Source: a virus (lineage: Duplodnaviria; Caudoviricetes). From it: 54,759 nucleotides of DNA. The notes below the pieces were generated by a model. That model ran no database searches. It worked only from the letters and a program-made list of their open reading frames with translations, and was not told where the DNA came from. The DNA is taken from the IMG/VR virus record IMGVR_UViG_3300030098_005273, positions 1 to 54,759 of that record. One strand, written 5' to 3'. Shown one piece after another: positions 941 through 22,096 of this stretch (the stretch's first letter is position 1; every line of letters starts with the position of its first letter). The translations under genes were made by a program, and so were the position numbers.

Positions 941-1255
941 TTAGCCCTCCTTTAAGAGTCTTTTTAATTTTATATACTGGCGCTTACCATCAATTAATTC
1001 ATCGGGTATATCTTTAGCTTTTAAATTACTTTTATCAGCTATCATATTTGCCACATATGAATCAATCAATTCTTCTCTATATCCTTTATGCAATTCTTTG
1101 TAATGTTCTTTATTATTTCTGTAGTATTCTTTTGCATACTTACCCTTATCATCACATTTATCACATACATGATATTTTTCTACATATTTAAGAACAGGAG
1201 GAAGATCTAAACTTTGTTTCCTCCCATCCTCTTCAAAACATTTCAAACACTTCAT
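941..1255 (-). CDS. Zinc-finger hypothetical protein
   Basis: CLKC...CDKC; C-terminal IPDELIDGKRQYIKLKR; ATGA overlap with upstream gene. Confidence 0.75.
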   Translation of the reverse strand: MKCLKCFEEDGRKQSLDLPPVLKYVEKYHVCDKCDDKGKYAKEYYRNNKEHYKELHKGYREELIDSYVANMIADKSNLKAKDIPDELIDGKRQYIKLKRLLKEG

Positions 1256-2016: not shown

Positions 2017-2244
2017 CTATTCCTCTGGGAAAATTGAATCTATCATGATTGACAGGCTCAATTTATATTTAAACTCATCAGTCTTAGCTTTTAACTTATC
2101 TAAGATGATTGGCTTATTGGACACAAATGTAATATAAACATCTGATGGGTCTTCCATATTAAGAGTGACATGCTTTATTTGCTTTAATCCATAGTAATTT
2201 CGCATATCCTCTAATGCTTGAGATATCTTATATATATCACTCAT
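2017..2244 (-). CDS. Hypothetical protein
   Basis: 75-aa ORF, GAGGAGG RBS. Confidence 0.75.
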   Translation of the reverse strand: MSDIYKISQALEDMRNYYGLKQIKHVTLNMEDPSDVYITFVSNKPIILDKLKAKTDEFKYKLSLSIMIDSIFPEE

Positions 2245-2354
2245 TATAACCTCCTCATATAAGTCTGAAGGGCTTTAACTCCAAAATATATTAATACAAT
2301 CTCTGCAAACGACCTTATTATATATATAAAATCATAAAATATTGGTATATCCAT
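2244..2354 (-). CDS. Small hydrophobic protein (36 aa, not in ORF track)
   Basis: AAAGGAGG RBS; MDIPIFYDFIYIIRSFAEIVLIYFGVKALQTYMRRL; TAATG overlaps at both ends. Confidence 0.65.
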   Translation of the reverse strand: MDIPIFYDFIYIIRSFAEIVLIYFGVKALQTYMRRL

Positions 2355-2485
2355 TATTTCCCTCCTTTGTATACTACAATAGGCTTAGTTTCTTTCATCC
2401 AGTCTAGTATTTCTTTAACCACACTATCTGGTGAATTACCTTCAACAATTACTTTTGACACTAAGTGCCTGAATTTAACATTCAT
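2354..2485 (-). CDS. Small hypothetical protein (43 aa)
   Basis: AAGGAG upstream of ATG 2485 (MNVKF); the ORF-track extension to 2536 runs into the tmRNA-like RNA. Confidence 0.65.
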   Translation of the reverse strand: MNVKFRHLVSKVIVEGNSPDSVVKEILDWMKETKPIVVYKGGK

Positions 2486-2511
2486 ATGCTTCTCCTTATA
2501 TTTAAAATGAG

Positions 2512-2590
2512 TGGAGTTGGTGGGAATCGAACCCACGTCCTACTATAATACTCTTTCGAGTCTTAGAATAGTCGAAAACCATTCAACCCC
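2512..2590 (-). ncRNA. tmRNA-like RNA consisting only of the tRNA-like domain (mini-tmRNA, 79 nt)
   Basis: GGGGTTG-AATGGTTTTCGA-CTATTCTAAGACTC-GAAA-GAGTATTATAGTAG-GAC-GTGGG-TTCGATT-CCCAC-CAACTCC-A. 7-bp acceptor stem with G3.U wobble and A discriminator; stemless tmRNA-type D-loop ending TTCGAC; GGAC-T arm as at tmRNA 3' ends; CCA not encoded. Confidence 0.85.
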
Positions 2591-2595
2591 TATTT

Positions 2596-2880
2596 GGGTA
2601 CATAAACTGAGACTATGTTTATATACTAGAGAACCTTTGGAAGACTTATTGGTTATCTTCTTTGTCCACTATGTGTTGCCACACAGTAATTCTCCAAACT
2701 CAGTAGTTATAGACTACCACACTTATCGAGTCAGGTCGCTCAACAGTTAATCAATCCTAAGCAGAGTAGCGAGCTCTGAATAAGTTCTTTCACCATTAAA
2801 CATACAAACCTTGACAGGTCAATATGCACTCTATTCACCGAAGTGTAGAGTTTTAGAGTCCTTTGCTCCTTCCTCGCATT
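2596..2880 (-). ncRNA. Large structured ncRNA candidate (RNA-B) abutting the mini-tmRNA
   Basis: ACTCTA-CAC-TTCG-GTG-AA-TAGAGT (cUUCGg); CAGAG-CTCGCTA-CTCTG with loop complementary to downstream AGCGA; ACTGTGTG-GCAA-CACATAGT; terminal TATATAAAC-ATAGTCTCA-GTTTATGTA. Confidence 0.65.
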
Positions 2881-2934
2881 GTCAATTTGTCTTTTTTATC
2901 TATTCATATTATTTACTTTTAGTTAATAGTATTA

Positions 2935-3380
2935 ATTAGAGGGTTAGGTGGCTGCGAGACGACAATGTTGCGGCTTACCAATCTTTTGGACTAGTAAATA
3001 CCACACTCGCATCCTTCATATAATGTCTGGTGAACATAAATATAAGATGTTTCAGGCATGCTTACTCTCTCTTACCTCTCGATAAGACAGTAACCTTAAC
3101 AATGGAACACGACCTATGCACCACACAGCGGCCTAAATTCCTACCCTTTTGATCTATTGAATGTCACCATTCTCAACTCGACTCCCACATCAAGTATTAC
3201 TCAGTCACACCTCATCAGCGTTTGCCACAAAGGCATGAACAAGTAACGATAGGGCTTGCATTGGTAGACCATTTCTGGCGCCTATAATCCATTAATTAAT
3301 TGAATTGGACTTCGACTTTCACCTATTACTAGGCTTATCCTTGTGTTTTATATGCGATACAATACTACCACATAATTCTT
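2935..3380 (-). ncRNA. Large structured ncRNA candidate (RNA-A), possibly GOLLD/ROOL-like
   Basis: GNRA hairpins CCTA-GTAA-TAGG, CCA-GAAA-TGG, GAATG-GTGA-CATTC, CTTATC-GAGA-GGTAAG; nested GCGAG-TGTGG..TACTAGTC-CAAAA-GATTGGTA..CCGCA..CTCGC; long-range AGGGTAGG/CCTAACCCT; no ORF. Confidence 0.65.
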
Positions 3381-3485
3381 ACGAATTTTACAAAATCTTT
3401 AAACTACAACAAATAATAACAACGTTGTAATTGGTAAGGTGCATGCTAAGGTAAGGTTCTACTTCAGCACACACCCAAAAACAAT

Positions 3486-3701
3486 TTAAATCTTTACTTT
3501 TGCCCAAGAAGATGTATCTACCCATTCTTTATCAAATGGTAGCTTATCAGCATTATTACGCTCTGCGTCTAAAACAGATTTAAGTGCGAAATAGTCAGCT
3601 TTCCAAGACAAATACCTCTTTTGAGCTTTCTTATACTTATTAATAACAATAAATATAAGTATTAGCTCTACAAGGGCAACAGAGAGGATAATAGTAATCA
3701 T
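3486..3701 (-). CDS. Small membrane-anchored protein
   Basis: N-terminal hydrophobic helix MITIILSVALVELILIFIVI followed by basic residues. Confidence 0.75.
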   Translation of the reverse strand: MITIILSVALVELILIFIVINKYKKAQKRYLSWKADYFALKSVLDAERNNADKLPFDKEWVDTSSWAKVKI

Positions 3702-3910
3702 TTTAACCTCCCCTCATCATCAGTAAATACAGGCGACATAGTATCACCGTATTTATCCATGAAGTTGTCGTAGACATGGTATAATCTATCTTCTTCAACC
3801 ATAGTATCCATTTCTACTGTACCACATTTACAATCAATAGTAGTGGTAAAACTATTTTTAGTAACACATGCTACCTCTTTGCATTGAGGGCATTCAACAA
3901 ATAACTGCAT
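3698..3910 (-). CDS. Zinc-ribbon protein
   Basis: CPQC...CKC; AAGGAG RBS. Confidence 0.75.
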   Translation of the reverse strand: MQLFVECPQCKEVACVTKNSFTTTIDCKCGTVEMDTMVEEDRLYHVYDNFMDKYGDTMSPVFTDDEGRLK

Positions 3911-4073
3911 AGATTCTCCTTATCTTTTAGTTTAGTGTGTTTAGTATAAGTCGGTATTTAATACATCACACACACACGCACTTACAATAACAAAAGAAAC
4001 AAAACAAATAATACAATAAAAGGCAGGAAAGAGGATGCTCTATCACCTGCACCCTCTAACCCAGAGAAACCTT

Positions 4074-4346
4074 CTACTTCTTCTTATCTAGCTTGCCTAA
4101 CACTTTGGCTACTAGTCCACTGAGCTCAGCTGTTTGAGCCTGATTCTCAGCCACAATCTGCAATAGATTGTTATCTGCATCAACTTTAGCCAGCGTATTA
4201 GTCATCAACATGAACGCATCCATATTACCTGCTACAGCATGAGCTAATGCAATATCTTCAGTACTTTTCTTGTACTCAGGTGAGACACTGATCCCATTAT
4301 TCCTGTTAAACTGTTGGGCCACCTTGGCCTTAGTATACTTATCCAT
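4074..4346 (-). CDS. Hypothetical protein, first gene of the leftward operon
   Basis: TAGGAG RBS; 90-aa ORF. Confidence 0.75.
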   Translation of the reverse strand: MDKYTKAKVAQQFNRNNGISVSPEYKKSTEDIALAHAVAGNMDAFMLMTNTLAKVDADNNLLQIVAENQAQTAELSGLVAKVLGKLDKKK

Positions 4347-4381
4347 TACTTTATCTCCTATTTAATGACAAATAAATACTC

Positions 4382-4460
4382 AAAAAAGAAATCAAAAAAT
4401 CAAAAATAACGAAAAAACGATAGTCAAAAACCCCTGATAAGGGGTACCCCTTTGGGGAAA
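4382..4460. other. Phased A-tracts plus C4/G4 palindromic block at the divergence point (candidate pac/terminus/origin site)
   Basis: A5-6 tracts start at 4382, 4394, 4402, 4412, 4426; then CCCCTGATAAGGGGTACCCCTTTGGGG containing the palindrome GGGGTACCCC (4441-4450); upstream of TerS. Confidence 0.5.
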
Positions 4461-4496
4461 CACCACACGATAAAATGCTATAATTTTTAAAACCTC

Positions 4497-4526
4497 TTGG
4501 TTTAAATAATAAAGTTACCTTATATT
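4497..4526 (+). promoter_or_regulatory. Putative sigma70-type promoter of the late operon
   Basis: TTGGTT-N18-TATATT at the start of the rightward unit. Confidence 0.35.
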
Positions 4527-4529
4527 TCG

Positions 4530-4750
4530 CTATTGGCATTCTACATAGAATATCATCCTTGATGGCTTCGCAAGCAAGTAAAGGATCAGAAGTTGGGTTG
4601 CCACCTCATATAGAGGTTAAGGATTGTCCCCAATAGTCAATAAAACAGACTCTGATATAAGTTTGGATATGGGAGAGATTACTGGTCTAAAAGCGAAATT
4701 CAGAAGTTAAAAGTTCAAAAATTGGTTAAGCCCTCTCAGGGCTTTTTCTA
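4530..4750 (+). ncRNA. Structured leader / ncRNA ending in an intrinsic-terminator-like hairpin
   Basis: Hairpins ATTCT/AGAAT, ATCCTT..AAGGAT, ACCTC-ATATA-GAGGT, CAGACT..AGTTTG; ends AAGCCCT-CTC-AGGGCTTTTT (4728-4747). Confidence 0.45.
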
Positions 4751-4766
4751 TCTAATTGGAGATTAT

Positions 4767-4952
4767 ATGAAGAAAGAATATGTATTAAGGATTATATATA
4801 ATACAGAGACCCAAGAGATTGAACATTTATCTGAAAGTTTTAGTGATGAAGATAAGCTGTGTATGCTTGTAGATGATGAGGAGGTAGAGATATCAGAAGA
4901 GTTGAGAGAATTATTAGAGAAAATGGATTCATATATAATAGGGCTATGTTAG
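4767..4952 (+). CDS. Small acidic hypothetical protein (61 aa)
   Basis: GGAG upstream of ATG 4767 (MKKEY); ORF-track start 4722 overlaps the hairpin. Confidence 0.7.
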   Translation: MKKEYVLRIIYNTETQEIEHLSESFSDEDKLCMLVDDEEVEISEELRELLEKMDSYIIGLC

Positions 4953-21987: not shown

Positions 21988-22096
21988 TATTGGGAGAGGT
22001 CTTCTACAGAACCTCCTTTATTCTCACTTCCTGTAAGCAGTTATGGAAAGTTAACTGTGAGAAAGACCTCTCGCCAATATAAAGGAGGCTTTAATG
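21988..22096 (+). promoter_or_regulatory. Structured leader with an anti-Shine-Dalgarno segment
   Basis: Stem TATTGG-GAGAGGTCTT/AAGACCTCTC-G-CCAATA; internal CCTCCTTTAT (22012-22021) exactly complementary to ATAAAGGAGG (22079-22088). Confidence 0.6.

Follow-up and report, generated by a model that had tools for sequence, protein, structure and literature searches.

A divergent marine phage member of the GOLLD RNA family with a tRNA-like-domain-only mini-tmRNA as its 3′ neighbour

The IMG/VR virus record IMGVR_UViG_3300030098_005273, which was analysed over its full length of 54,759 nt (hereafter, the window), has an estimated completeness of 95% and carries genes for a small and a large terminase, a portal, a head protein, a primase–helicase, an Erf recombinase and SSB. 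The DNA sequencing runs that contain this stretch are labelled as marine metagenome. At positions 2596–2880, on the minus strand, a first-pass annotation made from the sequence alone had proposed a free-standing, double-pseudoknot RNA of 285 nt, termed RNA-B, lying just upstream of a truncated transfer-messenger RNA (tmRNA). We found that a GOLLD RNA gene lies here and that RNA-B is its conserved 3′ domain, together with a few bases of spacer.

The GOLLD scan that had been suggested alongside the proposal settled the identity of the region. The Rfam GOLLD model (RF02032) matched positions 3013..2604 of the minus strand (173.4 bits; cut-off, 150; E 4.7e-47) over model positions 1–416 of 416, and a search of the entire record repeated the result at 3013..2604. 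The match comprises a 5′ hairpin (2955–3013), an A/U-rich linker and the 3′ domain, which occupies model positions ~134–416 at 2604–2880; the window copy lacks one of the model's hairpins, with 17 model positions skipped. RNA-B is not a free-standing RNA, and its start at 2880 is the start of the GOLLD 3′ domain: a domain border and not an RNA end, as homology and RNA contigs continue to ~3370. The second Rfam match above cut-off in the window was to tmRNA (RF00023), at 2590..2509 of the same strand (62.3 bits, cut-off 47). Here 303 central model positions are reduced to 11 nt, and the tRNA-like domain (TLD) alone is present. A permissive Rfam rescan of positions 2250–3550 added only a permuted-tmRNA model, at 17.7 bits (cut-off 47), which lay on the TLD and the sequence downstream of it and off RNA-B.

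The GOLLD family is already known, and the adjacency of its members to tRNAs has also been described (PMC6582537); the window copy is an additional, divergent marine member. No match to window positions 2400–3400 was found by blastn among 50,697 deposited phage genomes. A single-sequence nhmmer search with the 3′ domain recovered only the window itself and one relative, L171, and a profile was therefore required to find more. A search pattern derived from conserved 3′-end motifs yielded at least 115 viral loci, a sample biased towards GOLLDs that fit the pattern, and a profile built from these loci recognized 105 loci and the window (counts over these GOLLD loci, here and below, are among the matches listed). 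The window was the weakest match to a profile of the other GOLLD 3′ domains, at 51.6 bits. It resembles characterized GOLLDs in its full-length model match, its conserved 3′ and variable 5′ domains, its length of several hundred nucleotides, its location in a phage and its tRNA-type neighbour, and differs from them in belonging to a divergent marine subfamily, in the deleted hairpin, and in having a TLD-only mini-tmRNA as neighbour instead of a tRNA. That neighbour is tRNA-like, though ARAGORN calls no true tRNA in the window.

Because the Rfam model takes in just the final hairpin of the GOLLD 5′ domain, the extent of the gene was derived from relatives and from RNA contigs. The window aligns with L171 from a GCGCCAG motif (~3278–3284) onwards, and positions 3014–3285 are homologous to the 5′ domains of relatives. 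Contigs from four metatranscriptome runs, belonging to four studies, were aligned to positions 2300–3500. Run X12 contributed one contig of 494 nt on 2883–3376 with 1 mismatch, and run X16 one of 733 nt that aligned end to end on 2605–3343 at ~95% identity; pieces of contigs covered 2618–3371 in run X18 and 2691–3368 in run X19, the latter with an Illumina adapter directly after 3368. Together, these contigs span 2605–3376. On this basis, we place the whole GOLLD gene at 2604..3376 of the minus strand (~770 nt), with an approximate 5′ end somewhere in 3343–3376, and its variable 5′ domain, outside the Rfam model, at 3014..3376. A length of ~740–770 nt with a variable 5′ domain is in keeping with membership of the GOLLD family.

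Neither the stretch 3380–3500 nor the TLD was covered by RNA contigs, the sole exception in the TLD region being a T-arm look-alike of 34 nt (2507–2540) within an unrelated contig. The open reading frame (ORF) downstream of the TLD was covered in one run at ~3×, compared with 10–36× for GOLLD; in the other three runs the flanks (2300–2600 and 3380–3500) were bare. Restriction of the contigs to GOLLD argues against DNA carry-over. Lack of cover on the TLD and the flanking ORFs proves nothing alone, and an RNA of 82 nt is not expected in such assemblies. The contigs stop at 2605 or 2618 and none bridges into the TLD. These data are a weak hint that GOLLD accumulates in the sea as a discrete, relatively abundant RNA of ~770 nt with its 3′ end at the foot of helix P27.

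The structure of the 3′ domain was assessed on an alignment (A3) of the window and 18 distinct relatives of the same family (19 sequences), with helices mapped from the Rfam model; the names P22 and P27 represent our own inferred mapping onto the published GOLLD helix numbering. Across this alignment, 70.9% of cells were paired, against 61.2% in shuffles, a value reached by none of 500 shuffles, and 45 of the 77 base pairs in the 3′ domain were altered on both sides. The GOLLD 3′-domain helices are thus maintained by compensatory changes. Pairing was low (30–34%) for two long-range helices, probably because the MAFFT alignment misplaces them. The hairpin capped by cUUCGg (2828..2851), which the first-pass annotation had recognized, is a helix of the Rfam GOLLD model, with 94.5% of cells paired and compensatory change at seven of its nine pairs. 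Its second hairpin, with a GCAA tetraloop (2667..2688), is likewise a GOLLD helix and is largely kept (81.8% of cells paired). The terminal hairpin P27 (2605..2619), with loop L27 (AUAGUCUCA), was paired in 100% of cells, and all three of its pairs showed compensatory changes. The first base of the TLD, G1 (2590), lies 14 nt beyond the end of P27 and 13 nt beyond that of the GOLLD match (2604), so the earlier observation that the last helix ends just before the tmRNA stands.

All of the characteristic junction motifs of the family, namely UCUCA of L27, GUGGA and AAAG, occur in the window. UCUCA was conserved in 18 of 18 family sequences in A3 that had not been chosen by that motif. It should be noted that in a larger alignment of 87 sequences the invariance of the three motifs is partly built in, since 79 of its rows were retrieved by a pattern demanding them.

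The two proposed pseudoknots fared less well than the hairpins. The arms of the first, UCGCU (2768–2772) and AGCGA (2736–2740), which delimit positions 2736..2772 of the minus strand, are complementary in the window. Across the 19 sequences they were paired in 32.6% of cells, and the central three pairs held in 8, 1 and 3 of 19. A perfect 5 nt complement to the 7 nt loop arose in 420 of 2000 dinucleotide shuffles, and the real sequence contains a second such site. We judged the pairing to be chance complementarity, given its low frequency in relatives and how commonly shuffled sequences match it.

The second pseudoknot, UCUCAG (2607–2612) with CUGAG (2699–2703), is partly an artefact: beyond an invariant GAG:CUC core, it draws on bases that belong to P22 and P27. 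Helix P22 (2702..2718) includes the CU of CUGAG in its 3′ strand. The bases of the outer C-G pair of the pseudoknot belong to P22, where model pair 213–240 is AU in nine and GC in nine of the 19 sequences, and to P27, which is paired in 18 of 18; as a pair in its own right it fails in 7 of 18. The next base, U, sits in a P22 G-U pair (212–241) that is invariant in 19 of 19. The core itself (2699–2701 with 2609–2611) was complementary in 18/18, 18/18 and 16/18 sequences. As it never varies, the comparison neither supports nor refutes it.

Cryo-electron microscopy (cryo-EM) of GOLLD, as far as described in the text of the preprint, places contacts between L22 and J17/22 and shows L27 to be a hub whose pairing partners are P23 and J24/26 (bioRxiv 10.1101/2024.12.08.627333). 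The loop of the first proposed pseudoknot differs from L22. The second does use L27, whose published contacts are given without residue numbers in the text. In most GOLLDs (alignment A2), UCUCA occurs twice, in the P23 3′ strand and in loop L27, and the complementary UGAGA once, in the P23 5′ strand. The P23 sequence of the window's family differs, and there is a separate UGAG after P22.

The neighbouring element is an 82 nt TLD-only mini-tmRNA at 2509..2590 of the minus strand, supported by the RF00023 match and by a consensus fold of ten relatives. It folds into a 7 bp acceptor stem with a G3-U pair and a 5 bp T stem whose loop reads UUCGAUU; the mRNA-like domain is replaced by a short hairpin that closes the molecule. 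In ten TLD-only sequences, G3-U was present in 10/10, and two acceptor pairs (4 and 5) as well as one pair of the T stem were changed on both sides; the sequence of the closing hairpin was free to vary while its pairing was kept. The TLD ends in ...CCACUC, and so CCA is not encoded. ARAGORN reported no tRNA and no tmRNA in the window; this program is insensitive to TLD-only genes, calling none at 56 viral loci that we retrieved with a TLD pattern. Full-length matches to the TLD profile were obtained for 20 of these 56 loci. At two of them (L004:598–679 and L052:2990–3071), the TLD differs from that of the window at 3 of 82 positions (~96% identity, alignment A4), with one compensatory change in the acceptor stem, and tRNA-Met(CAT) begins no more than a few bases further on. 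At another (L005:13090–13170), the TLD closes an array of six tRNAs.

A TLD-only tmRNA is not without precedent, as mycobacteriophage DS6A is listed as 'TLD only' by Hudson, Lau & Williams (2014; PMC4131195). DS6A and the window share a phage-borne tRNA-like domain of tmRNA that lacks the tag-coding part. Host and phage group are unrelated, the window TLD lies 13 nt past a GOLLD, and the likeness concerns the neighbour and not RNA-B. The same paper mentions that a molecule similar to the TLD-only form strongly inhibits tmRNA, perhaps through titration of SmpB (PMC4131195). The window TLD would most plausibly act alone as an SmpB decoy.

The first-pass annotation had also raised the possibility of a split tmRNA, in which RNA-B would supply in trans the pseudoknot-rich, mRNA-like part that is absent from the TLD. 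Adjacency and similar size (~280 nt for RNA-B, compared with ~300 missing model positions) are all that speak for this arrangement, to which we assign next to no probability. RNA-B is the GOLLD 3′ domain, and tmRNA-clan models gave no match on 2604–2880 at E values up to 1. Each of the two RNAs occurs without the other, and the first-pass annotation had itself named TLD-independent RNA-B homologues as evidence that would overturn its idea: among the matches listed, a TLD was present in the fetched DNA of just one of 105 other GOLLD loci, a relative of the window, leaving 104 GOLLDs without one, and the GOLLD profile recognized none of the 56 TLD-pattern loci. Five of these loci were also checked with Rfam; all five gave tmRNA matches of 65–80 bits and no GOLLD in the fetched DNA. 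Four relatives of the window carry the TLD upstream of their entire GOLLD gene, and the TLD is a single piece closed by its own hairpin. The predicted RNA-B:TLD duplex (−38.4 kcal/mol) is no better than chance, the mean for shuffled TLDs being −41.3 kcal/mol and 81% of shuffles scoring equal or better.

Two-piece (permuted) tmRNAs, with separate tRNA-like and mRNA-like pieces, are reported from Alphaproteobacteria, cyanobacteria and marine phages (PMC9004378). In these the acceptor stem spans both pieces and a tag frame is present, unlike the single, self-closed TLD of the window. All three frames of the GOLLD strand are rich in stop codons, although no search was aimed at a tag-like frame. 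Independent occurrence, a self-closed TLD, the lack of a tmRNA match on RNA-B and a duplex no better than shuffles led us to reject the split tmRNA; RNA-B neither is recognized by tmRNA models nor pairs and co-occurs with a tRNA-like piece. The window TLD is a separate, self-contained TLD-only mini-tmRNA and not half of RNA-B, and the descriptions 'double-pseudoknot RNA' and 'split tmRNA' can both be dropped.

We surveyed the sequence downstream of GOLLD at the 104 loci for which 100 nt or more were available on that side. An ARAGORN tRNA was found at 32 of the 104, nine of them tRNA-Met(CAT), and in 27 of these 32 the tRNA starts 5–15 nt past the end of the profile. A T-arm motif without a tRNA call was present at 17 loci, the window included, some of these being bare acceptor/T-arm minihelices. 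The remainder had either a hairpin followed by a run of T (38/104) or other content (17/104). A reduced set of 79 less-similar loci gave a comparable breakdown (tRNA 19, T-arm 14, hairpin and T-run 32, other 14). On the same profile-end scale the window TLD starts at 11 nt, and no TLD was seen after GOLLD outside the window's phage family among the matches listed. We infer that the TLD takes the slot filled by ordinary tRNAs in about one-third of GOLLD loci and by intrinsic terminators in about another third. Acceptor-stem and T-arm minihelices not called by ARAGORN lie directly after the GOLLD 3′ end at L063, L169, L091, L111 and L159.

The position of the TLD was also examined within the phage family of the window. 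The large terminase has >599 relatives in IMG/VR, and 41 of 80 kept records, chosen by length, were searched. GOLLD was found in six of the 41, in four of them above cut-off, and the TLD in two, both of which carry GOLLD. A hand calculation for the TLD in 2/6 GOLLD-positive against 0/35 GOLLD-negative records gives 15/820, or ~0.018, and ignores both kinship and the fragmentary nature of the records. A family-specific P22 pattern returned 21 loci; with the related locus G002 and the window, 22 were tabulated. These define a divergent marine GOLLD subfamily of at least 22 loci from uncultured phages of ~50–55 kb. The TLD lies downstream of GOLLD in two of the 22 (the window and G002, 14–15 nt away as tabulated), precedes the entire GOLLD gene in four (L171, L269, L276 and L280), and is absent from 16. 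Its end is only a few bases from the conserved GOLLD 5′ start in L269 and L280; in L268 and L274 the upstream slot holds tRNA-Met(CAT) instead. Between the TLD and GOLLD of L171, at 1050–1144 (+), ARAGORN calls an unusually long 'tRNA-Stop(tta)' of 95 nt with anticodon UUA, which is ochre-suppressor-like and has no counterpart in the window. In L263, L278 and L281, sequence 142–170 nt past the GOLLD end resembles a T arm and matches the TLD profile over its 3′ third (26.7 bits).

This variability bears on a rival explanation, which we regard as possible if somewhat unlikely: GOLLD and the TLD may be mere neighbours in a shared, variable island of tRNA-type genes, with the GOLLD 3′ end formed independently of the TLD, for example by another endonuclease, or by any cut further downstream followed by exonuclease trimming that stalls at the compact 3′ domain. 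The movement of the TLD from one side of GOLLD to the other and its absence from 16 of 22 family loci fit such an island, as do TLD-only genes in tRNA arrays without GOLLD and the six of eight family loci at which an ORF directly follows GOLLD with no tRNA-like element. In addition, the 733 nt contig that ends at 2605 is only ~95% identical to the window and could come from a relative without a tRNA-like flank. Against independent end formation stand the tight placement of tRNA starts at 5–15 nt in 27 of 32 loci and the finding that tRNA-type and terminator-type flanks are near-exclusive, which suggests that the flank matters for end formation.

Overall, the locus holds a GOLLD gene at ~2604–3376, and we consider it probable that its 3′ end is freed by RNase P and that the TLD is a separate neighbour, probably on a shared transcript. 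GOLLD RNA would be made from the leftward gene block and co-transcribed with the TLD, and RNase P would cut at G1 of the TLD (2590), most likely freeing the GOLLD 3′ end. The 13 nt spacer at 2591..2603, which would serve as the RNase P leader and has a 14 nt equivalent in G002, would then be trimmed from GOLLD back to P27, allowing a discrete RNA of ~770 nt to accumulate. The released TLD would work on its own, most plausibly as the SmpB decoy considered above, and where GOLLD has no tRNA-shaped flank, its 3′ end would be formed by a terminator or another route.

RNase P is known to generate the 5′ ends of tmRNAs (PMC3985003), and its cutting at the TLD is plausible on indirect evidence. The first-pass annotation had named this cleavage as the event that sets the 3′ end of RNA-B. 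At this locus the idea gains from the tRNA-like fold, the tRNA-like spacing and the contig stops at 2605 and 2618. It does not extend to the family as a general route, since most relatives have no tRNA-like element after GOLLD. In mammals, the long, structured non-coding RNA MALAT1 acquires its 3′ end through RNase P cleavage at an adjoining downstream tRNA-like element, mascRNA. The comparison is an analogy only, as MALAT1 is eukaryotic and unrelated in sequence, and the cut after GOLLD is a predicted one.

Several observations weigh against this interpretation. In most GOLLDs of the family (six of eight) a ribosome-binding site and then an ORF come immediately after the RNA, and neither a terminator nor anything tRNA-like intervenes, which suggests that a discrete 3′ end is probably possible without RNase P. 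The contig stops cannot prove RNA ends, and their coincidence is a weak hint; three of the four RNA runs are 90–99% identical to the window and may represent relatives with other downstream sequence. A consensus scan of the minus strand at ~3376–3410 revealed no sigma-70-type promoter upstream of the apparent 5′ end. Lastly, the window member is divergent, being the weakest match to the 3′-domain profile, and a cage formed by it would be an extrapolation from homologues.

In those homologues, GOLLD RNAs have a two-domain fold and assemble by themselves, with no protein, into hollow cages (bioRxiv 10.1101/2024.12.08.627333; PMC12990946, which cites the cryo-EM studies of Kretsch et al. 2025 and Zhang et al. 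2025). According to the same two sources, full-length env-38 GOLLD forms a 14-mer and the isolated S. agalactiae 3′ domain forms 8- to 12-mers; within each half-shell the 3′ domain forms the lower portion, and it also provides the contacts that join one half-shell to the other. Cages that expose covalently linked tRNAs were proposed by the cryo-EM authors (bioRxiv 10.1101/2024.12.08.627333), and a tRNA in the linker of mycobacterial GOLLD has been discussed as 'inhibited storage' (PMC12990946). By extension, the TLD could remain on the GOLLD 3′ end as covalent cargo or a handle, displayed on the cage or held inside it, and both TLD-positive records do lie among the six GOLLD-positive records of the 41. 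We nevertheless find this improbable. The published tRNA cases concern an internal linker and not the 3′ end, the TLD is on the 5′ side of GOLLD in four relatives, some with a promoter-like stretch between the two, and the RNA contigs stop at 2605 or 2618 with none bridging to the TLD, though an 82 nt RNA would be lost from such libraries anyway.

The 3′-flank rule (a tRNA-shaped element within ~15 nt, or a terminator) offers a testable model of end formation for one of the largest bacterial and phage RNAs, whose RNA-only cage structure has been solved. The locus also links GOLLD to another phage RNA, the TLD-only mini-tmRNA, which presumably serves as a decoy for SmpB, a protein of ribosome rescue. 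A broader and rather doubtful speculation is that GOLLD genes are 'punctuated' by tRNAs, minihelices or TLDs for host tRNA-processing enzymes, and that in the window's family the TLD decoy and the cage may jointly target translation or ribosome rescue; the confinement of the TLD to GOLLD-bearing records among the 41 is a hint of such joint action. A literature search of titles and the beginnings of abstracts found no account of a TLD-only tmRNA occupying the tRNA slot of a GOLLD, of the spacing rule or of the marine subfamily; Weinberg 2009 and Morgado 2020 fell outside this search, and parts of these findings may be in print.

Several smaller features of the locus deserve mention. A promoter and terminator scan of positions 2200–4800 found nothing resembling a terminator in the interval from GOLLD to the next ORF, and its counts were at shuffle level. 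By eye, and despite the negative consensus scan, a TAAGAAT-like −10 element is visible ~7 nt before 3369–3376 in an A/T-rich part of the minus strand (~3376–3400), and a similar A/T-rich, TATAAT-like stretch lies just before the conserved GOLLD start in L272, L171 and L276. Judged by its sequence, this stretch may be GOLLD's own promoter. The next gene downstream is a short ORF. Its listed form, 2354..2536 with a GTG start, overlaps the TLD; read from the sequence, an ATG at 2485–2483, preceded by AAGGAG at 2497–2492, is a likelier start, giving a gene at 2354..2485 of the minus strand and a protein of ~43 aa with no PHROG match. Elsewhere in the window, five successive very large ORFs with no PHROG family at E ≤1e-5 occupy positions 22094–46056 of the plus strand and encode products of 1301, 982, 1377, 3213 and 1021 aa.

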